Shown: positions 1-63,996, counted from the whole stretch's first letter. The stretch is 63,996 nt of DNA, filler included, from Collodictyon triciliatum (GCA_043381765.1; 5 parts of 5 records of this genome joined end to end with filler, not necessarily neighbours in it), one strand, 5' to 3'. The notes: generated by a model from the sequence alone, not told the origin. Numbers and translations are program-made.

Positions 1-12825
<12,825 letters not shown>

Positions 12826-22332: not shown

Positions 22333-22728
22333 CTTCTGCGGTCTTTGTTCGTGGTTAGAAGGTGCTCTGCTGGGCAAAGATCCCACAGAAGCTGATTCAT
22401 CTCTGAGTGCGCCGCGATCATTGCAAGGCCGGGTGTGTTTATATACTGGTGGGCCACGAATGGTTCGACGGTGGGAAATTTAGGACTGGTTGCAATATAT
22501 CCGGTCCAGTATTTTCCAGATTTGAATGAAAGGCAGAACATACGTTGATGGAATCCCTTTTTGGACAGAAATGTACGGTATTTATCTACTTTGGTACGTG
22601 TGGCCTGCTGTGGTGCATCTCGTGTGGTGCTGACCTGTTTCTGGAAAGAATAAATGTAGTCAGGATTCGACTCGCTGAAAGTACCAGTATGTCACGCTCT
22701 GTGCGAAAAGAACAGCCAAAAACAAAGG

Positions 22729-42300: not shown

Positions 42301-44963
42301 AGGTATTTTTTGTCTCCTGTGCACAACTGGACGACATAGTAACTAGGTAAAATTCGAGCGTGTTATGAAAAAGACCACGTTATTGACACGGTTAATACAA
42401 GGCTACCCGTGCAGAGGATAGCTGTGATGCAATTTCCTCCCAACGCATTTTGAAGAATCCTCGTAACCTTGCTTTCTCGATACGGAATTGGGCCGCTTGT
42501 GCTTTATTCCGTTTCGATTGTAATAGAGTAAGATATTGAATAGAGAAGCACAATTATGTTAACTCGAAAACATATATATATATATAAACATCAAAGGAAA
42601 TGCAACCAAGATGACAAATTGGTTTTAAGAAAAATTACCCCCCTCTTCCGTCCCCCAATCGGTCGATGACAGATTTCAAAGAATTTATCCATTTATATTC
42701 TAATTCTTCATTCATGTCTGCACTTTTTCTGGAGTTCAGGGAATGGAAAGTTAGAAAATGATGTAGAATAAAAAAATCCCTGATATTTGATTGAAAATTG
42801 ATATATTTAATATGATAACATATGAAGACAGTAAATTTTTTTGGGCATGTTTATTAAAAGTAAAGAGACGTACCTTCCAGCCAGATCAAAAATTGTCTAT
42901 GTTGAGAGTATAAAGACCAAATAAATCATTTTAATTACAATATGTACATATTCACCTAGAAAATCATGAATTGAATCAAATACATTGCAGGAAAATAATA
43001 ATCACCAGATGACTAGATGTAGCTCCTGATTGGTGGTTGCCGGTAGCAATATCAAAACTTTCTATTTTCTGGGAGGGGAATATTATTGTTTAACTATTCT
43101 ATGACCAATTTTTTCTGTAGTTCAAAGCATGCCTATGTGAAAAATTAATTAGATAACAGAATCACAGAATGTGATGATTCTCACCAGTTTGTAAATCACA
43201 TGAGATCTGTTCATACTTCTGCCCGATGCAGCGGTATAGACAAACCTAGCTTCTGAATTTGGATAGCGTACTATTGTAAGAGAAAAAGAGAACAAAAGAG
43301 AACAAAAGAGAACAAAAGAGAACAAAAGAGAACAAAAGAGAACAAAAGAGAACAAAAGAGAACAAAAGAGAACAAAAGAGAACAAAAGAGAACAAAAGAG
43401 AATGGGCCATGATAAAATCATGCTACTTTCAATATCAGATTTTCAAACAATTAAGATGGGTACTTTGAGCTTCGTTAATCATATCCATGGCCTCTTTTGA
43501 GTCTGCAACTATAACCTCTTTTATGCCGACCACGTGTGGTCCCTTCATGATGAATCCAGCACAGTTTATGATTAGTAGTGTTATTCTATTTTATTTTGCA
43601 CTTACAATACCAGCCTTTTTTTTTTTGCTACAAAATAGGAAAATCAAAGTGATTCATAGTATATCAAAAATATGTAAATAAACATACTCGGTCGTCCTCT
43701 GCTATTCTCATGTCCATTTTTCCAGGTTCAAGTAAGTCTGATATAGATTCTTGATATATTTCAAATATGGAAAGCCTAAAGCAATAGATTTTCTCCTTTC
43801 TGTGTTGAATGGAAAGAGAGAAAGCATCCTTAATGGCATACTGCAGAATTCCCTGTAGAAAATGCACAGTTTTCAGGAAGTTAGTATGGGTGCGAAGGTA
43901 TATAAATTTGCAATCCAAAACAATCATACGCCGGAAATCTTAAATTTTTACAAGCTCATCTGGCGTTCCAGTCACGGTGTAAGATTTTCCTGTTAAACTC
44001 TGTCCATACACTATGAGTGCAGCTGCATACGGTATTTTTAAAAAATTATTCAACATAATATCTCAAAAAATAGATAAACCGTGTCAGTGTATCGACTTAA
44101 CCAGTTCATGTCATTACAAAATATGAAACATAGAAAATAAAAGGCTTGATTGATTAGGCATTTGTCTTTTAAGGCTAAACTATGCAAAAATAAAAATCGC
44201 AAGAGTAGCAATGAACGGCTAAGTAATCCATCAACTTAAAGAGGGGATTTTTTTTCACCATGAAATATTAATTACCGTTGCTTCCTTGTAAACTTGATAC
44301 CACTAATTCTTTTAATAGTTGGTTATATACATCTGAATTTGATGTCTCTGTGTCGAATACGTGGTCTAAAATTTTATGTGTTTTTATTTAATGACATGCA
44401 CATGAGCATATATATGAACATACTTCAAAAAGTTTCAAACATCATTTCCTATTCTTTACCAAAATTATAAAAGCTTTCTCTCTCTGGGCTTGACGACTTT
44501 GCTGCCGAACCATGTAATTTGATTTTTGATGAAGATGCGTTTGATAACGAGAAACTCGGTATATTATCCGGTGTCTCAAGTGGTTTCTTGAAATAGTAAT
44601 GATTTATATCAAATATGTTTTCTTGATGTCACAATAAAATAAAAGATAAATATTGCTGGATGTAGACATATAAAATATAAAAGGTACAATTTATAAGGAT
44701 TTTTCGAAGTTGAGAATAGAGCAGTTTACATAAAATAAAAATAGCTCTCTATGCAAACTAAGTTTTTGTTATGTGTTTCATATATGTCCATTCATATGTC
44801 AACTTTGAATCGAATAAAGAAAAATAAATTGATATACCAGTACGCCGACGGTGTTTCCTCGAATTGTTAAGCAGCTGGCTTCGCTATGTTCTGTGCTGTT
44901 TCGTTTGGAAGGACAGACTCGAACGCAGGCGAATATGTTACTCTGCGATCCAAGCGTGCTCAT
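30345..44963 (-). CDS. Giant kinesin-like protein: divergent N-terminal motor domain plus very long coiled coil (kinesin-7/CENP-E-like architecture); 3' end missing
   Basis: [98 protein letters not shown]. These are followed by phase-compatible coiled-coil exons, including the 378, 394 and 1505 aa ORFs. Confidence 0.9.
43281..43402. repeat. (AACAAAAGAG)n 10-bp intronic tandem repeat
   Basis: About 12 tandem units. Confidence 0.97.
44803..44828 (+). mobile_element. Ultra-short insertion, copy 4 (degraded, opposite orientation), in kinesin intron 1
   Basis: ctttgaatcgaataaag-aaaaataaa. Flanks attcatatgtcaa and attgatataccag match at only 9 of 13 positions. Confidence 0.6.
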
Positions 44964-45158
44964 CGCTTCTGTCCGCCTGCAGCTGCTCAGTAAGGTTTTT
45001 TTCTTTTTTTTTCTTTTTTTCTTTTTTTTCTTTTTTTCTTTTTTTTCTTTTTTTCTTTTTTTCTTTTTTTCTTTTTTTTCTTTTTTTCTTTTTTTTCTTT
45101 TTTTCTTTTTTTTCTTTTTTTCTTTTTTTTCTTTTTTTCTTTTTTTTCTTTTTTCTTT

Positions 45159-45258
45159 NNNNNNNNNNNNNNNNNNNNNNNNNNNNNNNNNNNNNNNNNN
45201 NNTTAATTAATTAANNNNNNNNNNNNNNNNNNNNNNNNNNNNNNNNNNNNNNNNNNNN
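45159..45258. other. Artificial contig linker, flanked by T-rich simple repeats
   Basis: N44-TTAATTAATTAA-N44. Confidence 0.97.
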
Positions 45259-45513
45259 TTTTTGTTTTTTTTGTTTTTTTGTTTGTTTGTTTGTTTGTTT
45301 GTTTTTTTGTTTTTTTGTTTGTTTGTTTTTGTTTGTTTTTGTTTGTTTTTGTTTGTTTTTGTTTGTTTGGGTGTTTGTTTGTTTTGTTTCCTCCATAGTC
45401 GCGTTATTCTACATGTCACTAAAGTCAACCATGTAGAAAGAGTCCGGGAGACGGCCCTGTTTGATGGCTACGTTTTATTATGCTTTTCTTTCCTTTTAAA
45501 AAATATTATGCTG

Positions 45514-48500
45514 TTATTCCCATTCGATTGTTGATGGCGGTTTGGAGGACACATCGTAGACAACTCTGTTGACTCCGCGCACTTCGTTGGTGATTCGGCC
45601 GGATATCTTACGGAGGAGCTCATACGGCATGGGATACCAATCAGCTGGTTTTTTGATTACATTAAAAAAAAAAGTGTGAATTCTATGTGAACCATGCATA
45701 AATCAATTTGTTAACAATACTCCTATGCAAAAAAAACGGCGAGGGGTGGAACCATAATATGTTAACATAACAGATAAATACTGTGAAGGGGCGCCAGAAG
45801 GAAAAGAAAAGAAGAAGCGCAGAAAAGACACATGAGACGGATGACTGCTGTGCGATTCAAATGATAAGAGGAGCTCTTTTCACCTGTCATGAAGTCTGTA
45901 GTTTGAACAGCGCGCAAGGCAATCACTTTTTCATAAGTGCGGCTGTCGCCCATGACTCCAACCGATTTGACTGGGAGCAAAACGCAGAAAGCTTGGTTGA
46001 TTTTGCTGTATTCGCCACTCGCATGCAGCTCCTCAAGAAAAATCTTGTCGGCTTGGCGCAAAATATCCAGGCTGCTTCGGTCCACCGGCCCGAGAATGCG
46101 GATGGCAAGACCGGGTCCAGGAAACGGATGGCGGTTGATGGACTGCTCATCAATTTCGAGAAGGCGGCCCACCTCACGAACCTGTACCATTTTATCTTTT
46201 CAGTTGGTTTTTTTTGGGGATTATTTTGTTTGGTTTTGTCGGAATGAGATTTCATATGAAAGAGTGTGTTCATTTGTCAGTTGGTAGTATAATATGCTGT
46301 AGGTGACACCAGTGGGGTTTTGAGTTCATTTAAATGGTTTTTTTTTCTATTTGTTATTGTACTTCATCCTTGAAAAGCTCTCGAAGAGGCTCGATAAGTT
46401 TAAGTTTCATGTCGGCCAAGAGACCTCCGACGTTATGATGCGTTTTTATGGTAGCAGAGGGTCCTTTGAAGCTGATGCTCTCAATAACATCCGGGTATAG
46501 AGTTCCTTGGAGTAGGAAGGCAAAAGCTCTATAGGAAAGAAATAAGACCAAAATTTCTTTATTTGTTTGATTTAACAATAATTGGATTTATAATGCAATA
46601 TCAATTGAAATAAAGGGGGTTTTGCACATTTAAATACTCATGTATAAAGCAACCATCTTACTCTCCAAGTCTCTTTGCTTCAGATTCGAAGACTTCGATA
46701 AACTTATTTCCGATGATCTTTCTCTTTCTTTCGGGGTCCTCGACACCTGGATTGTTAGTGGTGTTAAGTCATTTGTTTTTCTCAGAACAGTAACACATAT
46801 ACCGGGTTGGTATAAATAAGGCTAGAAAGAAAGAAAAAAAACCAGCAAGATTTTCAAGGAAAAGGTCGGTTGCATCAACAAGATGCAGATTAAGTCCCAT
46901 TCTGTCCCGAAGTCGCTTCATCACATTGGAGGCCTGAGGAATACAGAGAATGGAAAAATATAAACGAAATATACAAACTAAGAAAAATATGTGTTATACA
47001 TCATAACCCCCAAGATAATTGTGAATTGAATAAAGAAAATAGCTTTACTTAAACTTGGAAACCAAATACCTCATCGAGGCGAAGTACTCCGTTGTCAACC
47101 AAGATAGCATGGAAACGCGGCCCGATGGCTTTGTGCATTAGAACAGCGGCGACCGTACTATCGACTCCTCCGCTGACAGCTCCAATGACACGTCCTTCCT
47201 CGCCAACCTTTGAGAATAAGTTCATGAGAATAGTCGTATGGTGCAACATATGCGCGATGTAATGTCTATTTGACTATGTATGAAAGGGAAAATAATCGGT
47301 TTATATGAAAAGTCATTTTATTGACTCTTCCATCAGGAAAAAATTATTCGCAAATTAAATACTCATCATATTCATGAGAGTCATCCATACCTTCTCTCGA
47401 ATAGAGGCGATGGCTTCGTCAACAAAACTGGACATGGACCAGTCCCGTTCGCACTTGCAAATATCAACAAAGTTTGACAAAACATCGATTCCGTGTTGGG
47501 AATGGGTAACTTCGGGGTGGAACTAGTAAAGAGCGATGAATACTGTAAGAAAAATATTTTTGATGATTTATATATCCTTATTTGAGAAAGATCACTGCTG
47601 ATCGAGATAAAGCATAATGAGGAAGCGAAAAAAGTTGGTTGCGTACTTGGAGTCCATAAATATTTTTTTCAGATGAAAAAACTGCGGCAAATTCGCAATT
47701 TTCAGTCACTCCGATAGTTTCGAATGATGGAGGAAGCTTTGTTACCTTGTCACCTTCACAAGTTGCATGAATAAGAGAGAAGTGTCTTAAATTCCTTAAT
47801 AAAAAAAGAAAGCATGTTGGATGTATTTTTTGAGAATACGATATATTCTTTTCGCACATAAGTTAACTCTTACGTTTTTTTTTAATAAAAAAAAAAGGAA
47901 CACCAAAATAAAACAAACCATGGCTCATCCATACAGAAAACTGCTCAGTGATTCCTTGGAACAAGGGATTGGATGAAGTGACGCTAATCTTTGCATGTCC
48001 ATACTCACGCTTTTCTCCTGGCTCCACTCTGCCGCCCAACTGGTGACAAACTTCCTGGAGGCCGTAGCAGATACCCAGAATCGGCACTCCTACATATAAG
48101 ACGGTGTTGTTTTACTAACGCTGCAAACACGTTATGTGTTCCCCTTCATGGGTTATCTTCGTAAGGCAGAAGTTCATAAAGAATTCCATTTGATGGTGCA
48201 TATATTATCGGGCCTTATAATACTCAAATATGCATTTGATTAAAACTACAGAAAATGGTTCACAGTATAAAGTGTGGAACATAAACACTACCATGAGCTG
48301 CAAAAAAAAAAAAAAACTAAAGATAAACAACAACAAATATTATGATTAAAATCATCATAATAATGGGAGAAAACATCTTACCCAAGTCCCAAATGCCCGG
48401 CTGCACATGCGGGCTTCCTTCTTCATAGACTGACGACGGACCGCCCGAGAGAATGACTCCCTTTGGATGAAGCCTGGACACTTCGGCTATGGACGCCGTG

Positions 48501-48613
48501 CAAGGGAGCATTTCGGAGTAGACGTGGAGCTGGCGCAATCGGCGGACAATCAGATGGCTGTACTGAGAGCCAAAGTCGAGGACGACGATGCGATAGCGAT
48601 CTGCGGAGGCCAT
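45514..48613 (-). CDS. GUA1: GMP synthase (glutamine-hydrolysing)
   Basis: [98 protein letters not shown]. Confidence 0.98.
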
Positions 48614-49317
48614 GGTGCTTTGCCTGTCTCTTGGGTGCGGATAACAGTGATTAGTGTGTCCTTTTGAGTCTGCTTTTGCACGGCAGCAAGGAAAAGCGGT
48701 GGTGGGCTTTGCTTGCCTTTTCCAAAGGGTGAGTATCAACCTTTCGTGATGTCATGCTCTCGTTGACTGTGTCTTTTTTTTTTCTTTCTTCTTTTGAAAC
48801 TCTCATGCATGATCCTTGAGCCGAACTGAGGTTTGTCGCATCGGTTACTTTGTCAGCGAGTTGACCCAAGCAGCTGACCAAATCCGCCTCTTGTTGTAGG
48901 TTTGCAGCTGCGAGGCTGATTTTAGTGGGGAATATTAATTTTCCACAATTGGATAGAGGCCACAATGCGGTGTGTCTTTAATCTGGATTCAAGAAACCCG
49001 CCTTCCATCTGCGCTATTCCATGAAACCACGAACATAACCGGCATGGTGGGGTGCTTCGATAGAAAATGTATGGATTTGGTAACGGTTTTACCTCGTTGT
49101 TTGCTTCCTGTGAAATAGCGGCCTACTCCCTGTCACTCCGTTTCCAAGACGAAGCAGAAGCCAGCGAAAAAAAAAGCGAGGACAAAGTCAGTGAGGTGGG
49201 GAAGAGTAACGCAGCGCAAGAAGCAAACACACAGCTCTTTTGTTTCCTTTTTTTTCTATTTCTCTTATTTTCTTTCGCTTAGGAGAAGAGTAAGAGCAGC
49301 AATAGACAGACGAAAGC

Positions 49318-49380
49318 TGGAGAAAATATATAGATTTTTTTTTTCCTTTATTCGATTCAAAGTGGAGAAAATATATAGAT
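49318..49380 (-). mobile_element. Ultra-short insertion, copy 2: 27 bp with perfect 18-bp TSD
   Basis: tggagaaaatatatagat [tttttttttcctttattcgattcaaag, 49336-49362] tggagaaaatatatagat. Confidence 0.9.
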
Positions 49381-49401
49381 AGACATTAAATAAATAAATT
49401 A

Positions 49402-49402
<1 letters not shown>

Positions 49403-49458
<56 letters not shown>
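49403..49458. repeat. Poly(A) tract upstream of the 49587 gene
   Basis: About 56-nt A run. Confidence 0.95.
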
Positions 49459-49459
<1 letters not shown>

Positions 49460-49586
49460 CAACGACGGGCTGTTTTTTCTCCAGAGCAGCAGCGCCCTTC
49501 TTGCAGCCTTTCTTCGCTGTGCTGACCAATCCACGTAATCAGTCTCCCACGCTTCCAGCTAAACAAGCACCCTTCTTGAGGCCGAC

Positions 49587-51161
49587 ATGGGGGGAGGAAG
49601 CAGCCGCCACACCGCAAACTCAGCCCCGTCCCGGGCGAGCAAAGCGCCTCCCGCACGGCAAGGAAGCCTGACCAACCCGGACAGCGAGAGCACCAAATCC
49701 AGTATCATCAACCTGAAGCCGATGAGGCAGCCGCCCGGGTCGCCGGTGCCGTCCGGGTCCAAGAAACAAGGCGGGGCTGAGCAGAACAGCAGCAAAGGCA
49801 AGAAGAGAGACAAAGACAAGGACAAGGACATGAAGGGCGGAGGTGGCCCGTCCGGCAAGTACGCCGCTGCGCCGTCAGGCTCGGGGCCAAAGTCCAAGGC
49901 CGAGCTGGAGAAGGAGGCGGAGATCTATGCGCTGGAGCAAGAGCGCATGAGCAAGCCCAAGTCGCTGAGCGAGGGCTTCTGGGCGCCCGGGTGGATGGCA
50001 CCTGGCGAGCTGGGCACCCCGGCGTTTGAGTGCTGGCCGGACAAAGTGCGCCCGTCCGACCTACATCAGGCAGCAGCCGGGCGCATTGTCTTTGGCAAGA
50101 AGCCGCCCCATCTGACTCCGGCGGGGGCCAAAGTCTCTGCGCCCGATGCAAACGCAGGCTCAGGCGGCGACGGCAGCCACGGCCATGTGAGCAGCCTTAC
50201 GCAGCCGTCGCGCTTCCACTCACACGAGGCCATCTGCGGCTCCGCATTCCTTCCGTGTAGACTCCCACGCTACTGCATCGGATACCAGCGGCCCCGCGAG
50301 ATGTGGCGGCCGCTGCATCACTTCTGCTATCTCAACCCGACACAAGGCGCCTGGGTGGCCATGTATCTCTACATCGACGGGACCGCCGTCTGCCCAGCCC
50401 GCCACATGTTGCAGCCCGTCCCACGCAGGCAGCCGTCTTTGCTCTTCCAGATGGACGGCTCGTTCCTCAACTCCCATGACCACTACGACGTCGAGTCCAT
50501 CGGAAACAGCTCCGACTCCGACGTGGATCTTGAAAATACCCCGGCGGACGGTAACCACGACGATGATGACGACGACGATGATGATGATGACGATGACGAT
50601 GACAATGATGATGAGAATGGTGGCAACGTCGAGGCCAAAGCCGCTGGGGCTGCATCCAAAGGCAAAGAGCGCGGTGTTCATATCCGAGTGGGTCGAATCT
50701 TTCATGCCGCATTTCATATCTACCGTCTGCCCCCGGAAGAAGTTGGCCAGACTGTCCTTCTCCCTATTTACCTACTCCCTGAGCCTGACCACCAATCTGA
50801 TGTGCATCCAAAGCCACCTGGTATTGGGACCTTGCCTGGGGTGGAGAATACGACCATCAACAACATTCCTCCCAGGCATCGCGAGTCTTGTCGCCGCTTC
50901 GCTCGCTTGCTGGCTGCCATGCCTGCAGGTCGTCACCGGGTGGACATTGAGATTCGCGTTTTGTTTGAAGATGGCCAAACTGCACTCATTGGATATCATC
51001 CGGCGAGCAAGACCGTGGCTGACAATTTTGTGTCAGGTCCAAAGTTTTGCCTGGGTCCTTCTGAAATCCTTGCTCGTGGTGATTTTGTTCTGAATGTTCA
51101 TCGGCGAGACCGCAAGACTTTGACACAAGTAGCCAATCAAGGCGTCGACCTTCAAGTGTGA
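49587..51161 (+). CDS. Intronless hypothetical protein (524 aa) with N-myristoylation-like start and poly-Asp tract
   Basis: Long GC-rich ORF with strong third-position G/C bias; MGGGSS fits the MGxxxS myristoylation motif. Confidence 0.85.
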   Translation: MGGGSSRHTANSAPSRASKAPPARQGSLTNPDSESTKSSIINLKPMRQPPGSPVPSGSKKQGGAEQNSSKGKKRDKDKDKDMKGGGGPSGKYAAAPSGSGPKSKAELEKEAEIYALEQERMSKPKSLSEGFWAPGWMAPGELGTPAFECWPDKVRPSDLHQAAAGRIVFGKKPPHLTPAGAKVSAPDANAGSGGDGSHGHVSSLTQPSRFHSHEAICGSAFLPCRLPRYCIGYQRPREMWRPLHHFCYLNPTQGAWVAMYLYIDGTAVCPARHMLQPVPRRQPSLLFQMDGSFLNSHDHYDVESIGNSSDSDVDLENTPADGNHDDDDDDDDDDDDDDDNDDENGGNVEAKAAGAASKGKERGVHIRVGRIFHAAFHIYRLPPEEVGQTVLLPIYLLPEPDHQSDVHPKPPGIGTLPGVENTTINNIPPRHRESCRRFARLLAAMPAGRHRVDIEIRVLFEDGQTALIGYHPASKTVADNFVSGPKFCLGPSEILARGDFVLNVHRRDRKTLTQVANQGVDLQV

Positions 51162-52355
51162 AATAACCCAAACTCTCCTCCATTGTTCCATTATGTGATA
51201 CCCTATACTTTTCACCCTTTTCAGTATCGAACACTATTGTCATGAAACAGGCGGTGGTAACCATCTTCTTTATGAGAGCCTTTAAGAATAGTTTCCCCTT
51301 TTTTTTAAAAAAAAATAATGAATTATGAATAAATAAAAATGAAATTAATTGCTTCTCTCAGCACATACCTTCTAATTTGTGGGAAAACGTATATATATAT
51401 CAATTCTCATCGCTTGGGTCAAGAGAGGTACTTAATGCGTGCAGTAGTTACTTTATCATACTCGTTTAAAATCCATTTTTTTTTATTTTTTAATTTTTTT
51501 GCTATCTTGTTTCTTGTTTGTTGATTAGTTGTGTGTGAGCTCCTAACAACGTAAATGTAAGAAAAAGAAGCAAGCACTTAAGCTATCACAGCACATAAAG
51601 GATACCTGCAAACCGGTGATGCTTACAACGTTCTCAGGTGCTGACCCCTAATTCGCTCGCGGGAACTGAATGTAAAGATAATCTCATATCTATACTATGA
51701 TAAAAATGATAATTAAATCGTTAGAAAATTCTGGCTTGATATCAAAAGTGTGCAAAATAGTGAGTTTTTCACTTTATTTTGTAAAATCCACTTTTGTATA
51801 AAGGGCTCATTTCCATCCACAGAATTTCTAGCCTAATTCATTTGTGGAATATTATCAAGGTACCATATGAGGCAAAGGCATGTTCTCCTTATTTCGGGAA
51901 GCTTCTCTGCAACCCCGACAAAACACGCACCAAATAAAGCCAAACCACTCACGAAAAGCCATTTTTCGTTTTGCCATGGTAAATTTTGCCGGAGTGAAGC
52001 AGGCAAATGAATAAAAACAGGCGAAAATAAGAAGAAAAAAGGGTAAATGAAAAAGAATATAAAGATTTTGCCTGGCCAATAACTTCCCACTCGCACGGAG
52101 GCCCAGTGATGAATCGTGATGCACGAAGCGCCTGGCGGCGAAATGATTTCTGCGGGAGGAAGGAAATGCCCCGAGAATAAAGCCAAGGATAATTCGCTCA
52201 CGGGTTGGGTGAAGGCGAGACATTGGAGCGATAATTGTACGGACAGCTTGCGCTCATGGCTTCGCGAGCGGAGTCGGGGATATGGCCAGCGGAACGACTC
52301 GCTAATCAAATGGTTGCTCTTGCCATCCAGGAAGAACAGGGAGAAAGACAAAAGA

Positions 52356-54706
52356 ATGGCGTGCCGGATATTGTTCCCACAGCTCCAAATTGTCGGGGAA
52401 AGCGGGGTGGAGGAAGATCTGCTGCCCTTGGACCAGGAAGAGCCGCTGACGCTCGACACTTTCCAAAGCCTCATCCGCATGTACGAGGAGAGCGGAAAAG
52501 CCTGCTTGATTGCCCGCGTTAAGACAAGGTCTACCCTTTTTTTCCTTTTTTTTTCTTTTTTCTTTTTTCTTCTTCCTTTCTTCTTTTTCTTTTCTTCTTT
52601 TTCTTTTCTTCTTTTTCTTTTCTTCTTTTTCTTTTCTTCTTTTTCTTTTCTTCTTTTTCTTTTCTTCTTTTTCTTTTCTTTTCTTTTTTTTCTAATCAAC
52701 CCTTCGCTTATGGTAAACAGAGAAGCGCTTCTGCACACTAACTATACTGACGCACGGTTTATGTACTTTTGTTAACAGAGACCCAGAAAACATCCGGTTC
52801 TTTCACTATGACTACTATTGCGCGCACCAGCTTAATAAGGTCATATTTCGCAAAGGCCTGAATGAGCTTATCTCTCGCTACCACCCTACGCAGCCAATCA
52901 TGGCAAAGAATCCCCTCTCAAACCTCGACATTGTCGGCGAAGTCTCGTATTACAAGGTAAACATATCTAGCCTTCATACCTAGTGTGCCGATGTAACAAT
53001 CTGAGAGAAATAGAAACGAAATGGTATCGTGTTGCTCAGTCCTGCGTAAACCTTAGGTTCTGCCATCGGAAAAGAAGACGAAGAAACAGGTTGATAGATT
53101 CCCACTTCTGACTCCTTTCAAAAAAATTTCCTCTTGTTTAAAAATCACACCCGCTCCGAGCCTTTGTGAAAACGAAAGCGTTGGGCTACATCTAACTAGA
53201 CTTTCACAACCTTAGACAGCAGAGACAAAGTCAGGAGTATCTAGTCCCGTGCTGACAGCATGCCCTATTGCCGTCCCTGCGCCCCCAACTCTGCTGACAA
53301 ATGATGGCGATAAGCTTTCTCTGAATGAAGAGAGGACTCTATCCAAACCTCAGGATGAATCACATATCGAAGGGCTCGCTGACACGTACTTTTTTTTAAT
53401 TAAACATCATGAAAATAACCAAGAATTTATTTTAATTTTCCATCCTGAACCAACAACCTGATGAGTCGTGGCTACGTGAACGTGATGGAGTTTAAGTGTA
53501 ACGTGTTTATTCAAATGCAGTATCAGTAGAATGGTCCAAGTGAGGGAAGACGCTAGTCCAGTTATAATCAAAGTGTACCGAGAGCAAATCTCTTCTGCAA
53601 CTACATCAAGCGTGACACCTCTTCCAAACACCTTGGAGGAAACAATATCCCGCAGAACATCTATGCAGGATGCACAAGGCACTTCGCCCGATGCAGCGCG
53701 TATAGCCCAATTCATTGGGACTGACTACAATTATCTCCATTCATCAATTTTTCGATTTGTAAGCTAATCCTTGTTGATCTTTGCTAATAAAATTTCAATA
53801 ATTTTGTTACGTCCTTTGCGAACAATATATTGATGAAATAACTTGTTGCAGGAATTTGTGAGAAATGCCTTGAACGATGACAATGAGCTCCTCACCCAAC
53901 CCGTCAAGATCAGTCAGCCTGGAGGTTTCTTCAACAACCTACAGGAGGAGGAAATACAAAGTTTCCTTTCAAGAATTCGCTCAGTAAGTTACTTAACCTA
54001 TAAAACATACACAAAATTTTAAGTGGAAACCCATTATTTCTATGCATCAGAGTATTCGAAAGTGGCCTATTTGCATCGCTAGCCTAATAAACTTCCTCCT
54101 TCTCTTTTCTTTTTTTAAAGGCTGATACCGAAAGTCAATCTGGGGTTTTATATTTCATTCCTTATTCACAAGCGCGCTTGTCTGGAGCTATTTTGTCTAT
54201 TTACGTAGTGTGCTGCATTCTGGTTACCATCCTGTCCCTTGTGTAAGTCATGTTCACTTTTGAAGGATATTATATTAAAGTCATCATATGGTTATTAATT
54301 GCCACAGTATCAAGGTGTCAAGATACAGACTTAATTAATAGTCTCCTTGTTGGGTTTCTCGTCGATTGACTTTTAATATTCAACCTTTTTTTGTTAATAC
54401 AGTTCCTTAACCACGGCCTCTTATGGACCATGGTCTGGGTGGATTTGTGTCCTCGTTCCATTCGTTTCCTTCTTGCATGATCGAATCATATTCCTAACGT
54501 TTCAGAGACCTGAGCCGGGAGGCGTTCTGTTTGCAAAGATGGTTTCGTGGTGTGTGTACATCTTCTTCCCTGCAGCTGTCTCGCCAGAATCCAGCGACAT
54601 GTTTCGCTTCGTCCGAGGCGTGATGGATGTTGCTTTTCCGTTGTGTTTTCTCCTCTACTCAGTTGGATATATATACTACTCAAAGAAAGGCCGAATTGTC
54701 GTTTAG
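52356..54706 (+). CDS. DUF5092-like protein with C-terminal transmembrane segments
   Basis: EPLTLDTFQSLI...IARVKTRDPENIRFFHYDYYCAHQLNKVIFR...AKNPLSNLDIVGEVSYY and AQFIGTDYNYL...FVRNAL. The family assignment is recalled similarity, not a search result. Six phase-consistent GT-AG introns. Confidence 0.65.
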
Positions 54707-55194
54707 TATCATTTTCACCCACGCACACCATGCCTAGCTCTTTACATAAACATTACATATATATCTAGCCACTCATAGTTTATCGTTGAGTTTTACATTC
54801 TTTGTGTGGACTTTATCCGTCGACTCAGAGCATATCCCTCTATCATTTGTGCTATTTATTTCCCGTTATATGACCAACTATATATTCTTTTAAACCTATT
54901 ACATGCTCCTTACTATACATCTCTCCATCCTCTTACTTCTGCCATTGGACATCGTCATGTGGCGATAAAACCTGGAGAGTAAGAACTTCAACTTCCAAAA
55001 ATACCACCAGATAGCAATGAGGGAAAATAAATTTTAATAATAAAAACTATAGTGAAAAGAAAAGGCAGAAACCAGTCGGTTTGCGTCACCTTTTATGATC
55101 ATTTTATCAGCCATTCTTCAAAGTCCGCCTTCTCAATGTGCCATTTTTTCTATTAAAGTTTTCTATATTTGATTGCTTGATAATTCTTATCTAT

Positions 55195-55257
55195 TGTCAT
55201 CACTTCGATTATTTTTTTTTTCCTTTATTCGATTCAAAGTGTCATCACTTCGATTAT
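55195..55257 (-). mobile_element. Ultra-short insertion, copy 3: 27 bp with perfect 18-bp TSD
   Basis: tgtcatcacttcgattat [tttttttttcctttattcgattcaaag, 55213-55239] tgtcatcacttcgattat. Confidence 0.9.
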
Positions 55258-55359
55258 GATTAGCTCCACACAATCGTCTTTGATCGATTATTTTTTATTT
55301 TTTATTTTTTATTCGAGGCAACCTGGAGCCGCGCAAACTTTTTCTTCGCAAGGGCGGTC

Positions 55360-57908
55360 TTATTCCAGACTGTGGAGCAGGTCCTGTGTCCTTGGGTCAA
55401 GATTCTTGCAGTCCGACAAGTCGAGGCCGTGCACAGACAACAGAGGAAAGGGAGAATTCAGATATGTGTGTCTGAAAACCATCTGATTCTCTGCGGCCTC
55501 GCTGCCCAGCGAGCCTGACTCGCCGGGTTGATGAGATATGAGCCAGGTGCGGTAAGTATGGTCGCGCGATGCTGTGGTGAGAATTGAAGTCCCAGATTCC
55601 TGTGCGTAGGAGGCCATCGAGACAATCTCCATACTATGGCTTTGGAATCTGCACACGATGCGGCCAGTCCCCAGGTCCCAGATGAGGACCTCGCCACAGT
55701 CGTATCCGCAAGCGACATATTGAGCACCATAAAGCGTCACGGCGCGGACGCAATACGGCTTCGAATCCATACTTTCATCCACGAGCTCGGACATTATTTC
55801 GTTAAAGCCGTTTGAAATCTCGAATGTGGAGAGACACCCATCATCTGAGCCTATCACGAGGATGCCTTGGTCGGTGGGGTCGCTGTTGAGGACAATGCAG
55901 CCTGTTGTTGCTGTCATAGTGATTTCTATGGGGTCCCCAACCTCAATACCTGCTTTCGTGATGACCAAGCGAGCCAAATACCCGCCGACCACATACAAAA
56001 CACATCTGCCGTTCTGTGAGGCGTCTAGAATTTCAATGATTTGTCCACATTGTACTTCCTCCGAAAACAATGGGGTGTCCGAGTTGTTATCCCACACACA
56101 TAGTAACCCTTTCTCGCACACAGTCACCAGTAGGGCTTCTTCTTCCACCTCCACAAAGAGTAGGAATACAACCTTGTCTCCATTCCCTGGCAATTTCCGC
56201 ATGACCTCGAACTTGGATGCGTCCCATATGTGTGTAAACCCTTTTGCATCACCGGCCGCGATGATTTGCTTGTCACCACATAATCCCGCGTCAACCACTA
56301 GTATGGAGGCAACAGCTTCAGAGGTGGCGTGCAGCAGACTTCCGTTAAAAAGGTCACGAACTTGAATCGACCCATCCTTGCTTCCCGAAACAACAACTGT
56401 TCTCCCTCTGTCGGATAGAGGACGTATTGAGACAGAATTTACTGTCCCTGAATATGGTGCATAATCCCTCATTTTCTTCAGAGGGTTGGTTTTCCATACA
56501 CAAAGATTTCCTGCGTCATCGCCGACAATTATTGCAATGTGATCACCTTCTTCACTTTCAATAGTGCATACTCCCGTGGTCGGCTTGCTAAATCCGTGGT
56601 ATTTCTCAACCTTCTGTCCCTCCATGTTCCACAAGGTCCCAACTCGCTCTGTGTCGGATGTTAAAATATAGTCGCCCATTTTTGCGTGCGAAACAAAGAC
56701 AGCCTGATGGAAACTGTACTCGGTAGATGAAATTCTTTTCATTATTTTCCATTCCCCTTCGTATTCGACGATATCAACAGCTGATTTATGAGTAACCAAG
56801 AATCTATTATTCTCACCTTGCATGGGAACTATACCCAGGAAATCTTTGTTGCTGTACTTATAAAGCTGTTTGGGCTCCCCGTGATTATGCGCGTATTCAA
56901 AGATTGTGCCATCCTTGGCGCCGATGATAAATGTGGGTATGGTTTTCCTCTTTACTGGAACGATTTTACCCCAAGCCCATGTATTTTGTTGAAAGCCAAG
57001 CTCCACTGTCGTCGAAGTTAGGTCCCACCAACCAATTTGTACATCACTAATGATAAATACAGCTAAAGGTTTACCTTCGTAGTGTCCCCAAAATGACAAG
57101 GATGAAATAATTCCAGATACTGCATTTGATGTGGCTATATTCTTTTGTTGGTTGACACTCCATATGGATATTTTGTTGTTGTTGTCTACATAGAGGATGA
57201 TTCTCCCTCCATCACTATCAACTCCAAGACATGCTACTTTCACCTCACCACCTCGATAGAATATGGTTTCAGACATCGTCTCAAAATCCCAAATCATATT
57301 GTCCTTGCTAGTGGATATCAGTACCTTGCTATCTGATAGATGTAGAATCGAAGAGACCTTTTTAGAAAGCGATAATTTCCTATATATGCCAAAGTCGGTA
57401 TTGTTAATTGTAGCGCCTTTCAGTATCGCACCTTCTAAAAATGAATCACGCAAATTCACATTTACAAGGACTGTGCCACTTAAATCAGCTCGGTGTAGAT
57501 TAGCTCCTCTCAGATTAGTTCCCGAGAGCACCTTGTTTTGCAACTTTAAGCCATGTAAAGGCTCACGAGCCTGGTTCAGGACAGAGAGGGCATCAGAGAC
57601 GGTAAAAGCATCAGGGGTTCTATCCGCATTAATGTAGTCTCGTAGTGCTGTGCGAATTCTCTCATCTTTTAGGCATTCCTGATAAAGATGACTCTGAATT
57701 GTTGAACGCAAGCATTCTACGTCACACTCATCGCCCAGCTTGTTGGATGCTTTCACCGGACTTTGAAAGAGAGCAATCCTCTTGGAAGAATTGTCCCCTA
57801 ACAAAGAATCAGGGCTTTCGGCAGAAGATTGCTTGCTGAACCTCAAAAGAGTCTTTTCAGACATACTTGGAGACGCAATTTTCTTCCTACTCGACTGACG
57901 CCTGGTAC
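55360..57908 (-). CDS. Pentapeptide-repeat + WD40 beta-propeller protein; single long 3' exon, 5' end probably incomplete
   Basis: LSGTNLRGANLHRADLSGTVLVNVNLRDSFLEGAILKGA, then WD40 motifs (VVSGSKDGSIQVRDL, CGYDCGEVLIWDL, LTTASRDHTYRTW). The frame stays open up to an AG acceptor at about 57909. Confidence 0.88.
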
Positions 57909-58153
57909 CTGATATTTATCATGTAAATATAAGGGCACATAAGAACAGTTAAATGAAATATGTATATAAAGTCCTGAAGGATGCAGCCTGTATGTGTTGG
58001 TAAATAAAATTCATTGTGTGTCCTATCCCCTCCTTCCCCCGACCATGAGCCCTTTTTTTTATTTTGAAAAGGTGCAGGGGGGGGGGGGGGGGGGGGGGGT
58101 AATTTTTTTTTTTTTTTTGTGGTATTTTTTTTTTTGGTCCTTTTTTTGGATTT

Positions 58154-58253
58154 NNNNNNNNNNNNNNNNNNNNNNNNNNNNNNNNNNNNNNNNNNNNTTA
58201 ATTAATTAANNNNNNNNNNNNNNNNNNNNNNNNNNNNNNNNNNNNNNNNNNNN
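58154..58253. other. Artificial contig linker
   Basis: N44-TTAATTAATTAA-N44. Confidence 0.97.
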
Positions 58254-58351
58254 GGGGGGGTGGTGTTTGGTTCTGTGGATGGTTGTTTTCCGTTTACTTT
58301 TTTTTTTTTTTTTTTACCAAGTTTCTGTTTGTGTTGGTGTTTGTAGTATAG

Positions 58352-58557
58352 TCCTGATGATCTTCAGTCATCTTGTTTCAGAATCTGTCAGATTGATCCA
58401 ATCACTCCCGTTTTGATCCCTGGTAGATATGTCGAAGCAGCTCAAGTGTCTGGAGACGGCCGCTCGTTGGGTTGCGGGGCAGGGCTGGGATCCTTCCTTG
58501 TACTCAATCTGTGTGAGCCCACACCAGTCATGTCCAGAAGGTCGCCATACATGCTTG

Positions 58558-58602
<45 letters not shown>

Positions 58603-59125
58603 CTTTTTTTTTTTACCTACTTTGCTTCCTCTATTCGTTCGCTCATTCGCGCGCTCTGACAGTGTTGTTACTTGAAGGGTACCTAAGCGTGGAGGTTACT
58701 CACATGCCCATGATTCCTGGAGAAGGACCTTTGGAGCCGCGAGAACAGCTCCGCCTGAGCCGCTTATTGGTTTGTTTGATGGATTCAGAGAGAATGAGAG
58801 AGAGAGAGAGAAAAGTGATGAAGTGATGAAGTGATGAAGTGATGAAGTGATGAAGTGATGAAGTGATGAAGTGAAGTGGTGAAGTGATGACGAGGGCTGG
58901 ACAAAAGTGGATAGTGATAAACAATTACCACAGGAAATAAATCTTGAGACCGCGGTTATTGGCGATATACTCGCCGCAAGAGACTTGCAAGCGCTCGAGC
59001 GGGTTCGCCGAATCGAACATGCGCGAATGGAAACAACCAGACTGCAGGAGAAGTTGGAGTCACTGGAGGAAGAGAACCGACGAGGGTTGTTGGAACAGCA
59101 AGAGCAGCAAAGCGTGAATAACTGA
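58352..59125 (+). CDS. 3' exons of a hypothetical protein with C-terminal coiled coil
   Basis: Three phase-compatible exons: ...QIDPITPVLIPGRYVE...FLVLNL|WYLSVEVTHMPM...LSRLL|EINLETAVIGDILAARD...QQSVNN*. Confidence 0.55.
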
Positions 59126-59750
59126 CCAAGTTCTCTACATCATAAAAACCCACAGAGCTATCAGATAGAAACCTTATGTAAGATTATGACAATCATAAAA
59201 CAAAATAACGGACCATTTTTTTCTACGATTTTCCTTTTATTACCGCCTTGAGACCAGGTAATGCAAAGAACTGAAAAGCCAGAATATTTTTTTATTTTGT
59301 TTTTGTTTTTCCTTTCCATGCGATTTTATCACCTCCCTCCTTCTACGCATCATGATTGGTCCGCTCTTTGAAGCAACGCATAGTGGGACAGTATCTCCAA
59401 GAAGCCTGGCTGCAAGTGGGCGTCTCCGCCTCAACACCCGACCATGAGCATAATAACAGGCTCGTTGCTATCCCTTGGCACTTGTGGGCGCATGTCTCTG
59501 GGTACCTACGAAGTGTGCTTCATCATGTCTTAGACTTCCTCGTGTGAGCGCCTTCGTGTCTGGATTTCATGCAACAATATCCCGACGCTGCAGAAACCAA
59601 CTTTTTCGCAGTGCTTCTCTCTTCAGATTATCTGCAGCGACAGGAATGGCGGAAGGGGGAGGAATGGGGCGATGGCGTCACACTTGGCCGATGCTACGAT
59701 GCTAATCCCGATGGCTACTAGAAACAGAAGAGAAAGGAGAATACCCACCC

Positions 59751-59922
59751 AAAAACAACACAACAACACAACAACACAACAACACAACAACACAACAACA
59801 AAACAACAAAACAACAAAACAACAAAACAACAAAACAACAAAACAACAAAACAACAAAACAACAAAACAACAAAACAACAAAACAACAAAACAACAAAAC
59901 AACAAAACAACAAAACAACAAA
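59751..59922. repeat. (CAAAACAA)n upstream of the PP2C gene
   Basis: Tandem octamer. Confidence 0.95.
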
Positions 59923-60111
59923 AAGCAAAAAGCAAAAAGAAGGAAAAGTTAAGCTACATGACCCTAGGTGAGAGTGTATTCTTTCTTGCAACCCTATTCT
60001 TCGCTTCGCTACACACGATCGCACACGATTAAACCTCCTCCGCCGCAAGCAGAGCCGACCAAACAGACCGACCAGGCGCGACCCACATACCAGAACAACA
60101 AAAAGGGAGAG

Positions 60112-61882
60112 ATGCTCAGGCTCGTCCGAACCGCACAGCGCACCCACGGACCGTGGAGGTTGCAGCGCACATTGTCGAGTGTTTGCAAAGGGCTGCAGCT
60201 GCGCTCGTCAGGAGTCACGATCCAAGCGCCGTACAAAGGGAGCAACCTGAACGAGGATGCGTTTGGACTGGTCTCTTCGACGGCCTCACAAACACAGACA
60301 CAGATACACTCACAGATACACTCGCAGAAGCAGAAGCAGGAGCAAATGCAAATGCAAATGCAGGAGAAGAGGGACACAGGGGACACTGATAAACACACAG
60401 CTGCCGCAACAAATGCCGACGGCGATGCAAATGCAGATGCAGACGCAGATGTAGAGCGGATCCGCGTGTACGAGTGGAGCTCGGTCGAGAGCGAAGACGC
60501 GGCGGACGCGGCATTGCGCGTGGGGGTGGGCCAGATGCAACCACAGCCACAGCCACAGCCACAGCCACAGCCACAGCCACATGTGCACATCTACTGCCAC
60601 GGCGTCGACGCATCGTTCTCGCCCGTCCGCAGGCATCACTGGCGCTCTGCAGAGTGTGCACCCGCCTTCGACTTTGCAGCGGTGGCCGACGGCGTGGGCG
60701 GATGGCGCTCCCAAAACGTCAATTCGGGCGTCTATGCCCGCGCCCTCATGAGGCACCTCCTTATGGCCCCTGCCGCACACCCCCGTTCTGCCCCTGACTG
60801 GCCGCGCACATGGGCCCAGAGCGCTGTCGATGCCGTCCATGCCCTGCGCGTCCCGGGCTCGTCCACCGCCTGCCTGGCCCTTTTGCCGCACGCTGCCGCC
60901 CAGGTCGGTGCGCCCTTTGCTGCATCCGTCGCCCGTCTCTCCGATTTCCACTTCCGTTCTTTCTCTCCATCGCCATCTGCGGATCACTCTCTGTCTCTGT
61001 CTCTGTCTCTGTCTCTGTCTCTGTCTCTGTCTCTGTCTCTGTCTCTGTCTCTGTCTCTGTCTCTGTCTCTGTCTCTGTCTCTGTNGTCTATGTCTCTGTC
61101 TCTGTCTATGTCTATGTCTATGTCTATGTCTCTGTCTCTGTCTCTGTCTCTGTCTCTGTCTCTGTCTCTGTCTCTGTCTCTGTCTCTGTCTCTGTCTCTG
61201 TCTCTGTCTCTGTCTCTGTCTCTGTCTCTGTCTCTGTGTCTGTATCTGTATCTGTGTCTGTATCTGTGTCTGTGTCTGTCTATGTCTATGTCTATGTCTA
61301 TGTCTATGTCTATGTCTATGTCTATGTCTCTGCCCATCTTCATTTCATCCTCTCCTTCATGTTTGCTTTCTGTTATCGCAGTCCCACAGCCCAAATGTTT
61401 ATGCGTATATAATATATATGCATACTCTCAAATACCCATTCATTTTCCCAATATGCATACACATTCAAACACACAAATGCACAGTCCGGTCATGTCTAAC
61501 GCAACCTCATCCGCCTGCTTTTTGTGCCCCTTTGCTTTTCCATGCAAAAGTCGGCGGCTCAGAGGCTGCACATCCTCAACCTGGGAGACAGCAGCCTGGT
61601 TTGGATTCGCAACCAAAGCGTCATCTACCGAACGCCCATCCTGGAGCACGCGTTCAACTTCCCGTTCCAGCTGGGGATGCAGTCTGAAGACTCGATGCGC
61701 GATGCTCTGGTGCACTCGGACATCGCGCAGGAGGGCGACATCCTCGTTCTTGGGACCGACGGCTTCTTCGACAACGTGTTCGAGGAGGACATCATCTCCA
61801 CAATCGCCACCATGGCCAGAGACCCGAAGCAGTACACCCCCGAAAAGATTGCCGAGAATCTTGCGGCAAACGCCCTTTTCAA
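60112..61882 (+). CDS. PTC7: PP2C-family phosphatase, PTC7/PPTC7 type, probable mitochondrial presequence; 3' end lies in the gap
   Basis: MLRLVRTAQR... Arg-rich N-terminus; NEDAF, AVADGVGGW, GSSTAC, NLGDS, HAFNFPFQLG, GDILVLGTDGFFDNVF. One intron, about 60904-61550. Confidence 0.9.
60988..61332. repeat. (TCTCTG/TCTATG)n in the PTC7 intron
   Basis: Tandem hexamers. Confidence 0.97.
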
Positions 61883-62412
61883 NNNNNNNNNNNNNNNNNN
61901 NNNNNNNNNNNNNNNNNNNNNNNNNNNNNNNNNNNNNNNNNNNNNNNNNNNNNNNNNNNNNNNNNNNNNNNNNNNNNNNNNNNNNNNNNNNNNNNNNNNN
62001 NNNNNNNNNNNNNNNNNNNNNNNNNNNNNNNNNNNNNNNNNNNNNNNNNNNNNNNNNNNNNNNNNNNNNNNNNNNNNNNNNNNNNNNNNNNNNNNNNNNN
62101 NNNNNNNNNNNNNNNNNNNNNNNNNNNNNNNNNNNNNNNNNNNNNNNNNNNNNNNNNNNNNNNNNNNNNNNNNNNNNNNNNNNNNNNNNNNNNNNNNNNN
62201 NNNNNNNNNNNNNNNNNNNNNNNNNNNNNNNNNNNNNNNNNNNNNNNNNNNNNNNNNNNNNNNNNNNNNNNNNNNNNNNNNNNNNNNNNNNNNNNNNNNN
62301 NNNNNNNNNNNNNNNNNNNNNNNNNNNNNNNNNNNNNNNNNNNNNNNNNNNNNNNNNNNNNNNNNNNNNNNNNNNNNNNNNNNNNNNNNNNNNNNNNNNN
62401 NNNNNNNNNNNN

Positions 62413-62444
<32 letters not shown>

Positions 62445-62485
62445 AGCAACGCTATCGATGCCGTGCGATGTATTGATTTCTGTTT

Positions 62486-63804: not shown

Positions 63805-63896
63805 CTGGTAAGACGAAATCTAAATAAAAGAAATGATGTTAGATGAACAAAACTGCCGATGGTATAAGAGGAAAGAATTGATTTCTTTCGGATTCT

Positions 63897-63996
63897 AAAA
63901 AAGAAAAGAAAAGAAAAGAAAAGAAAAGAAAAGAAAAGAAAAGAAAAGAAAAGAAAAGAAAAGAAAAGAAAAGAAAAGAAAAGAAAAGAAAAGAAA
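63897..63996. repeat. (GAAAA)n in a MAD1 intron
   Basis: Tandem pentamer running to the window end. Confidence 0.97.

Follow-up and report, generated by a model that had tools for sequence, protein, structure and literature searches.

Four copies of a 27-bp unit

The window analysed here, a 63,996-nucleotide stretch of Collodictyon triciliatum DNA, carries one and the same 27-mer, T9-CCTTTATTCGATTCAAAG, at two places, 49336-49362 and 55213-55239, and the question is what kind of insertion could be so short and why its copies should end alike. The window consists of five contigs joined via N44-TTAATTAATTAA-N44 spacers, and copies of the unit are found on contigs 1, 3 and 4, in agreement with the original count of four copies on three contigs. 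The 18-mer CTTTGAATCGAATAAAGG occurs three times exactly and once with one mismatch in the 64 kb; the exact copies are on the minus strand at 9186-9203, 49345-49362 and 55222-55239, and the fourth, with its last G changed to A, is on the plus strand at 44803-44820. With up to three mismatches allowed, four matches were observed against 0.19 expected, and none of 100 shuffles attained four. The positions and flanks of the 18-mer were verified by direct reading of the sequence, and the features are as follows, with sequences in the orientation of the element and TSD standing for target-site duplication.

9157-9174, minus: copy 1, downstream TSD GGAACAAATAATCTGACA, 16/18 identical to the upstream TSD
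9175-9185, minus: copy 1, decayed tail TAAAAAACAAC, read directly
9186-9203, minus: copy 1, LINE terminus, 18 nt, exact (18/18) despite decayed flanks
9204-9221, minus: copy 1, upstream TSD GTAACAAATAATCTAACA, ends ACA
44803-44829, plus: copy 2, 17/18 of the terminus and A-rich tail AAAATAAAT, preceded by AA, not CA
49318-49335, minus: copy 3, downstream TSD, 18/18 match
49336-49344, minus: copy 3, A9 tail, read directly
49345-49362, minus: copy 3, LINE terminus, 18 nt, exact
49363-49380, minus: copy 3, upstream TSD ATCTATATATTTTCTCCA, ends CA
55195-55212, minus: copy 4, downstream TSD, 18/18 match
55213-55221, minus: copy 4, A9 tail (A10 counting the first TSD base), read directly
55222-55239, minus: copy 4, LINE 3' terminus CTTTGAATCGAATAAAGG, 18 nt, includes AATAAA, exact match
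55240-55257, minus: copy 4, upstream TSD ATAATCGAAGTGATGACA, ends ACA, a 3-nt microhomology with the parent LINE

Searches of the whole window by sub-words, and at a Hamming distance of up to 5 together with an A-tail, revealed no degenerate, shorter or longer copies beyond these four. Two weaker matches were taken as chance: a 12-mer without a tail that falls in an ORF (36236), and one at 8932 with five mismatches.

The copies are found in different surroundings. Copy 1 lies in sense orientation in an inferred 153-nt phase-0 GTAAGT...AG intron (9285 down to 9133) of a dynein heavy chain gene, the intron being deduced from ORF continuity and splice consensus. Copy 3 is located in the spacer of about 830 bp between a minus-strand GMP synthase gene and a plus-strand ORF (ATG near 49588), and copy 4, again in sense orientation, lies about 120 nt past the end of a minus-strand WD40 ORF (55360-57915). 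As for the genes themselves, the dynein heavy chain homologues reach at most 56% identity, among fragments, the WD40 ORF has no relative at E<=1e-20, and GTAAGT introns are seen in genes of the window. Taken together, genes and introns point to a eukaryote that has introns and is flagellated or ciliated.

Target-site duplications and tails

The direct repeats at copies 3 and 4 (49318-49335/49363-49380 and 55195-55212/55240-55257) are perfect over 18 bp, and no other non-tandem pair of direct repeats of at least 13 bp is found anywhere in the window with its members a few hundred bases apart or closer. In both copies an A9 (A10) tail abuts the TSD, and the window contains no other structure of an A-run plus TSD, apart from one match inside a tandem repeat near 13621-13656. 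The design first noted, 27-bp inserts with 18-bp TSDs, is perfect at these two copies and holds in part elsewhere: a locus-specific TSD is present in three of the four copies, copy 1 having 16 of 18 positions identical and a decayed tail, and copy 2 having no detectable TSD (local alignment score of 7 against a null mean of 8.5). The limits of the duplication are ambiguous, as its first base (A) may be part of the tail and its final CA part of the element; 15 bp can be assigned to it without ambiguity, and at most 18 bp.

The three TSDs end in ACA, ACA and CCA, and all three place CA beside CTTTG, as had been noted. The frequency of the CA dinucleotide is 0.067, so that CA at three of three TSD ends would be expected by chance with a probability of about 3e-4. 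In copy 1, changes are found at 0 of 18 positions of the core, 2 of 18 of the TSD and 3 of 11 of the tail, a distribution with a probability of about 0.03 at equal rates by our own arithmetic. Simple neutral decay does not predict an intact core beside a changed TSD and tail.

The unit is the end of a LINE

The identical 18-mer followed by A10, and preceded by CA, terminates at least 1 kb of a LINE on a freshwater-type metagenome contig (L001), found by scanning metagenome contigs with a 22-mer. The L001 ORF contains a Pfam zf-RVT domain (32.5 bits, cut-off 27.5), and its RT core lies off the contig. Its nearest protein relative, P0121, is 63% identical, and just 16 relatives were recovered at E<=0.001 among 1.84 billion representatives. 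Four of these 16 are full-length, and all four (P0131, P0133, P0134 and P0137; distant, 27-34% identity) have Exo_endo_phos, RVT_1 and zf-RVT. In the close LINE family, known from its last ~190-345 residues, zf-RVT is found in L001, P0121 and P0122, and APE and RVT_1 are found in the distant full-length relatives. The same 22-mer scan gave a second metagenome locus, a chance match inside a bacterial ORF; scans of genome contigs (two loci) and viral contigs (one locus) gave chance matches throughout, encoding FESNKGK in bacterial-type ORFs. No relatives of P0121 were found in viral contigs.

A paralogous LINE end is present in the window itself:

15094-15687, plus: paralogous LINE 3' end, cut off by the contig start, tblastx 48-53% identity to L001

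Its ORF (P0122) has a CCHC zf-RVT motif and a stop codon at 15502-15504, and its 3' UTR runs to ...CACAAAATTGAAAGG at 15678, followed by A9 at 15679-15687, giving an AAAGG-A9 end in which the tail word reads ...ATTGAAAGG-An. This fragment shows that LINEs of the L001 group with AAAGG-A9 ends live in this genome. It is the only LINE piece in the window: no RT or endonuclease domain was detected in the 42 ORFs scanned out of 83 of at least 110 aa, the remaining ORFs overlapping these or being of low complexity.

Because the L001 LINE shares the terminus and the window holds a paralogous LINE end, the 27-bp units are, as judged from sequence, LINE tails inserted by target-primed reverse transcription, with the parent seen in the metagenome contig alone. 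A poly(A) tail combined with a long TSD had been read from the outset as the mark of this process, and both the L001 terminus behind a zf-RVT ORF and the paralogous tail in the window support that view. The unit is thus not a new kind of element, and its origin is ordinary. Variable extension of most copies into a LINE had been named as the sign of plain truncation, and this pattern was not observed: one of the five copies extends into a LINE, and this is the metagenomic one. With SINEs the unit has in common a 3' tail shared with a partner LINE, the 18-mer being the L001 terminus. A SINE head (tRNA, 7SL or 5S with an internal Pol III promoter) is absent, as no Rfam family reaches its gathering score in the window, and the unique sequence before the tail amounts to 18-20 nt. 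A DNA transposon, MITE or excision footprint was rejected, since the termini are not inverted (CTTTG versus a homopolymer), there is a poly(A) tail and the sequence is a LINE terminus.

A common 5' breakpoint

The similarity of all four window copies to L001 stops within 1-3 nt of CTTTG, copy 2 having the same 5' limit as the other three. The variable 5' truncation expected among LINE copies was not seen among these four, which end at the same base. The fixed 5' end noticed from the window alone is thus real, and so is the junction microhomology, as the parent carries CA at that very spot (CTACA|CTTTG). The LINE-tail origin is of a known kind; the exact common cut-off base, identical in four of four copies, is unusual.

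We consider it somewhat better than even, at a probability of roughly 0.55, that each unit is a dead-on-arrival retrocopy of the extreme 3' end of an L1-like LINE, comprising its last 18 nt, including AATAAA, and A9-10, with a breakpoint set by microhomology. The LINE endonuclease would nick the bottom strand, the tail would pair with the nicked end and reverse transcription would begin there; a second nick, in the top strand about 18 nt away, would yield the 18-bp duplication. The nicked top strand, ending in ...CA-3', could then anneal to the growing cDNA at the first TG that it meets, which is the complement of the first CA that the RNA has behind its tail. As CA is missing from the 18-mer itself, this CA sits directly 5' of CTTTG. 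Second-strand synthesis, or a template jump, would begin at this CA and shorten the copy at the same base each time. We infer the order of the nicks, a preference of the top-strand nick for CA, and premature second-strand priming, rather than pre-cut RNA, as the event that sets the breakpoint.

Several observations weigh on the other side of this microhomology reading. An 18-mer without CA arises by chance with a probability of 0.31, so the absence of CA is merely consistent with microhomology and does not discriminate. There are four copies in 64 kb, three of them with readable junctions; copy 2 is preceded by AA and has no TSD; and we know of no established CA specificity of the top-strand nick for L1-like endonucleases. 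The intact core of copy 1 beside its changed TSD and tail, and the sighting of the parent LINE in a metagenome contig rather than in this assembly, count on that side as well. The microhomology model also predicts tiny copies of the paralogous tail, and their absence from the window counts against it: a search for CA|AAATTGAAAGG-An gave eight matches, one being the LINE end itself and seven lying in a tandem repeat.

Alternative explanations

A possible, though clearly less probable, explanation is that the template was already short, i.e. that an RNA of 18-20 nt plus poly(A) existed before reverse transcription and was copied to its 5' end by a LINE RT bound at the tail. Such RNA could be cut from LINE mRNA at CA|CUUUG, endonucleolytically or under small-RNA guidance, or could derive from transcripts whose 3' end lies in an older tiny copy. 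On this view no retroposon-like element would be smaller than the unit, and the CA match would be required only for joining. This would account for the single 5' end common to all four window copies, for the uniform tails (A9-10 in copies 3 and 4 and in L001, A9 in the paralogous LINE), for the ratio of four tiny copies to no longer copies of the family in the window, and for a core that is intact in copy 1 (18/18) and has a single change in copy 2 (17/18) despite decayed flanks or an absent TSD. However, a fixed end alone leaves the CA at target positions 17-18 (3/3) and the constant 18-bp stagger unexplained, 18-20 nt is too short for a promoter, and no source was found: L001 contains no self-cleaving ribozyme (HDV-like, hammerhead or twister) at E<=1 in Rfam, where two chance lncRNA matches were the outcome, and the sequence 3' of the breakpoint available to this test is 18 nt. 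It is rather doubtful that the tail of 18-20 nt with A9-10 is a complete, self-sufficient template and hence, as a 27-bp insert, the smallest retroposon known. If it were, LINE transcripts would give rise to a discrete RNA stub, e.g. by guided slicing or other cleavage at CA|CUUUG; about one copy per 16 kb would amount to thousands genome-wide, each bringing a sense AATAAA into introns and gene ends; and the intact 18-mer in old copies would reflect recurrent sourcing or selection on the AATAAA signal.

It appears unlikely that the enzyme instead halts reproducibly about 18-20 nt into the template, in the manner of a telomerase-like template boundary, because it meets RNA structure or fails to switch from initiation to elongation, and that the resulting short cDNA is then joined. 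The predicted fold of the last 143 nt of L001 does show a long-range 8-bp helix (AGUG-C-UAGC with GCUACACU) that closes exactly at the breakpoint, but the fold is no better than those of shuffled sequences (z = -0.26; 74/200 fold as well), the paralogous LINE end has no comparable predicted helix and the target CA is left unexplained. The CTTTG-N7-TAAAG hairpin at which stalling had originally been proposed does not stand up: folding of the 27-nt RNA gives a minimum free energy of 0 kcal/mol, which each of 200 shuffled sequences equals or betters. An adapter, primer or assembly chimera, which the identical 27-mers of the two young copies could bring to mind, is very improbable: an independent metagenome assembly has the 18-mer with A10 at the terminus of a LINE, the diverged TSD and tail of copy 1 and the substitution in copy 2 fit old genomic copies, the TSDs are locus-specific, and the 14-mer core has no match in published text within the literature searched. 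The suggestion that the plus strand holds a polypyrimidine tract and AG acceptor, or a spliced-leader-like unit, is the least credible of all and is already contradicted. T9-CC...CAAAG does resemble an acceptor on the plus strand, but the intron that holds copy 1 belongs to a minus-strand gene, which makes the proposed signal antisense there, copy 4 comes after the stop codon of an ORF on the minus strand, TSDs enclose the unit, which equals a LINE terminus, and no Rfam match, spliced-leader RNAs included, was obtained in the window.

Significance

No part of retrotransposition is understood less well than the completion of LINE integration, i.e. the second-strand nick, the attachment of the 5' end and the cause of 5' truncation. 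If almost every event in a family stopped at one base 18 nt before the tail, always with an 18-bp stagger and with CA at the junction, that family would serve as a natural experiment on this step, separating early capture of the cDNA by the top strand from random fall-off of the enzyme; if breakpoints are spread normally genome-wide, these are ordinary truncated LINE copies. Retrotransposon activity can also leave scars below the size handled by standard repeat annotation, and each scar brings with it an AATAAA, placed here within an intron, behind a stop codon or in a promoter spacer.

Comparison with known systems

LINEs of the L1 clade encode an ORF2 with an APE endonuclease, RT and a C-terminal CCHC zf-RVT domain. 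The parent of the units, a candidate member of this clade, resembles them in its C-terminal zf-RVT, its end of AATAAA and A-tail and a TSD within the L1 range. Within the literature and terms searched, we found no description of a uniform family of LINE-tail insertions of less than 30 bp, and the 27-bp insert is shorter than the insert plus TSD of any family that we found described.

Stringent-type LINEs and SINEs share 3' tails. As in SINEs and other retroposons that depend on a LINE tail, the units have a fixed 5' end, a 3' tail in common with a LINE, poly(A), TSDs and several dispersed copies. Unlike SINEs, they have no head derived from a small RNA, no room for a promoter and 18-20 nt of unique sequence as opposed to 80-500, and there is no indication that they themselves give rise to new copies. 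For scale, PMC4864456 names Platy-1, at about 100 bp, as the shortest SINE of primates.

Hebe, a jockey-clade LINE of the bdelloid rotifer Adineta vaga, is described in PMC2861651 as having no 5' truncation, internal deletions and TSDs of 7-12 bp. The likeness is that LINE copies depart from the random pattern of 5' truncation and that microhomology helps to shape them (PMC2861651). Unlike in Hebe, truncation here is extreme and affects all copies alike, with TSDs of 18 bp.

A further parallel is with 5'-truncated copies of R1, R2 and L1. Human L1 shows microhomology at its 5' junctions. For R1 and R2 of Drosophila, PMC2718515 describes junction microhomologies of 1-5 nt as frequent in 5'-truncated copies, a fixed 14-bp TSD for R1, and annealing of the top strand to the cDNA as the proposed primer of second-strand synthesis. 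The units agree with such copies in an insertion anchored at its 3' end, TSDs, a lost 5' part and microhomology at the 5' junction, and with R1 also in the fixed length of the TSD. Their targets are dispersed, whereas R1 and R2 insert at one rDNA site, and whereas the breakpoints of truncated R1, R2 and L1 copies are spread along the element, all four copies here stop at one base, 18 nt from the tail.

Copies of the 27-bp unit and their duplications

The copies and the LINE sequence related to them are located in the window as follows; no feature should be read across the joins of this five-contig concatenation of a draft eukaryotic assembly, and its GC content is 32-52%.

Contigs, spacers, copies of the 18-mer and the paralogous LINE
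1-14993, 15094-30085, 30186-45158, 45259-58153 and 58254-63996: contigs
14994-15093, 30086-30185, 45159-45258 and 58154-58253: spacers, N44-TTAATTAATTAA-N44
9186-9203, minus: exact 18-mer CTTTGAATCGAATAAAGG (copy 1)
44803-44820, plus: 18-mer with 1 mismatch (copy 2)
49345-49362, minus: exact 18-mer (copy 3)
55222-55239, minus: exact 18-mer (copy 4)
15094-15687: 3' end of the paralogous LINE, truncated by the start of contig 2; C-terminal ORF intact, zf-RVT motif

A search of the window for the 18-mer at up to 3 mismatches returned 4 matches against 0.19 expected, a number reached by 0/100 shuffles. The 27-mers at 49336-49362 and 55213-55239 (18-mer plus A9 on the minus strand) are identical and each is bracketed by perfect 18-bp direct repeats, so that the copies of the 18-mer and the two identical insertions of the original prediction were borne out. 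Besides these target-site duplications (TSDs) of copies 3 and 4, a window-wide scan revealed no other non-tandem short-range direct repeats of at least 13 bp, and A-runs after which the upstream sequence recurs were found only at copies 3 and 4, plus one tandem-repeat hit. The TSD of copy 1 matches at 16/18 positions and its tail is TAAAAAACAAC; for copy 2 no TSD was detected, with an alignment score of 7, below the null mean of 8.5. Since the first base of the TSD, A, could belong to the tail and the last two, CA, to the element, the duplication is 15 bp for certain and 18 at most. The middle of the 18-mer is also matched exactly over 12 nt (TGAATCGAATAA; 36219-36236, minus) inside a 397-aa ORF, with neither tail nor TSD, and this match is taken as chance. 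Contig 1 also carries, near its 5' part, the 12-nt tandem repeats (AAAATGAAAAGA)n and (GGCAAAAAAAAA)n at 13144-13243 and 13596-13656, which give spurious matches in A-rich pattern searches.

Genomic context

All three TSD-bearing copies share their orientation with the nearest minus-strand gene, and each copy carries an AATAAA in the sense orientation. Contig 1 holds an axonemal-type dynein heavy chain gene on the minus strand (AAA_6, AAA_7, AAA_8 and DHC_N2 domains), and copy 1 lies within an inferred 153-nt phase-0 intron of it, to which the insertion contributes ~47 nt; the exons read in one frame (...EKFPR / IESSRGF...), and host introns are of the GTAAGT...AG type, ~90-150 nt. A long (ATT)n microsatellite in this gene region (~9430-9535, minus) apparently lies within the intron upstream. 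Copy 3 occupies the spacer that separates GMP synthase from a plus-strand ORF, and copy 4 lies ~120 nt past the end of the ORF of a WD40/pentapeptide protein; the window also encodes an M14 carboxypeptidase with propeptide. Copy 3 is separated by 22 nt from an unbroken stretch of 56 A (49403-49458), preceded by AATAAATAAATTAC and located ~130 nt upstream of the plus-strand ORF's ATG. This stretch could be a very long homopolymer within a divergent promoter or else the tail of an opposite-orientation retrocopy. The GC-rich low-complexity stretch at 59968-62555, in which several frames are open on both strands, contains a gap of 530 N (61883-62412), is flanked by (AG)n/(CTGT)n-like repeats and is probably simple-sequence DNA rather than a gene.

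LINE origin of the 18-mer

Using the 18-mer plus AAAA as query against JGI metagenome contigs, we obtained two loci, one of which, L002, is a chance match within a bacterial-type ORF. The other, L001, is a 1,157-nt contig in which CA is followed by the identical 18-mer, A10 and 107 nt of AT-rich flank resembling the intergenic DNA of the window. The sequence terminated by this 18-mer is richer in GC, spans at least 1 kb and has an open frame bearing a C-x2-C...H...C motif (Pfam zf-RVT, 32.5 bits, cut-off 27.5). The zinc-binding zf-RVT domain is found C-terminally in LINE reverse transcriptases. The L001 copy is itself degenerate, since its ORF is split between two frames (549-1127 and 205-606, minus). 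Among 5.8 billion clusters the nearest protein, P0121, shares 63% identity and also contains zf-RVT, and an exhaustive HMMER search gave only 16 relatives at E<=0.001, of which the full-length proteins (4/4; 1226-1339 aa, 27-34% identity) have Exo_endo_phos, RVT_1 and zf-RVT, which is the domain layout of an L1-like ORF2.

Contig 2 begins inside the ORF of a paralogous LINE (P0122, QQCTLCSNGDESIEHTFVQC...; stop at 15502) that shares 48-53% identity with L001 by tblastx, and its 3' UTR of ~175 nt ends ...CACAAAATTGAAAGG then A9; LINEs of this group, ending in AAAGG-A9, thus live in this genome. Judged by sequence, the 18-mer is the terminus of one LINE of the L001/P0122 group. An adapter origin is unlikely, because this terminus recurs in a LINE from an independent assembly and two of the copies have decayed in the ordinary way.

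A uniform breakpoint and its possible cause

All four copies cease to resemble L001 at one and the same position (blastn alignments spanning 27-36 nt and a multiple alignment), the invariant block running from the A before CTTTG through position 17 (G) of the 18-mer, and tiny copies of this family outnumber longer ones in the window 4 to 0. Four breakpoints on one base cannot be ascribed to random 5' truncation. The CTTTG-N7-TAAAG hairpin at which reverse transcription had been proposed to stall found no support, as the minimum free energy of the 27-nt RNA is 0 kcal/mol and none of 200 shuffles folds less well. The final 143 nt of L001 likewise fold no better than shuffles (z = -0.26), and Rfam revealed no ribozyme in L001; a predicted long-range helix in the 143-nt fold terminates at the breakpoint and is weak evidence that structure may bear on the fixed end.

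The junctions follow a rule that had already been noted: the TSDs end in CA before CTTTG (3/3; chance ~3e-4 at a CA frequency of 0.067), as ...GACA, ...AACA (its other copy GACA) and ...TCCA. As the parent reads ...GCTACA/CTTTG, these ends give microhomologies of 3, 3 and 2 nt. Because the 18-mer lacks CA, the breakpoint coincides with the CA that comes first behind the tail; this is only consistent with such a rule, given that 31% of such 18-mers would lack it. A precedent exists in Drosophila R1/R2 (PMC2718515): junctions of 5'-truncated copies are marked by 1-5 nt microhomologies, the R1 TSD is a constant 14 bp, and the proposal made there is that the top strand, once cleaved, anneals to the cDNA and primes the second strand. 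In our best model, early top-strand capture at CA sets the uniform breakpoint: a top-strand nick 18 nt from the first nick would leave an end ...CA-3', which, if the nick came early, would pair with the first TG in the growing cDNA, and this pairing would fix the copy length at 18 nt plus tail.

The chief alternative is an RNA stub of 18-20 nt, polyadenylated and formed beforehand, that is copied to its end. It would account for the uniform end equally well and fits both the uniformity of the A9-10 tails and the preservation of the core in old copies, although no source was identified for an RNA of this kind and the CA rule would still be needed for joining. Several observations count against microhomology: AA stands before copy 2, which lacks a TSD; copy 1 keeps its core at 18/18, yet 2/18 TSD and 3/11 tail positions are changed (probability ~0.03 at equal rates, by our own arithmetic); the readable junctions number three; the window holds no tiny copies of the paralogous LINE tail; and the parent LINE is known from the metagenome contig, not from the Collodictyon assembly.

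Comparison with known elements

By origin the units belong to a known kind, the 5'-truncated LINE copies. They fall outside the definition of a SINE, since they lack a small-RNA head, match no Rfam family and contain just 18-20 nt of unique sequence; Platy-1, at ~100 bp, is termed the shortest primate SINE (PMC4864456). In the literature searched we found no description of a LINE-tail family with a uniform, extreme breakpoint and a constant junction, and it is in these features that the units differ from described truncated copies. Hebe of Adineta vaga (PMC2861651) departs from random truncation in the direction opposite to that of the 27-bp units.
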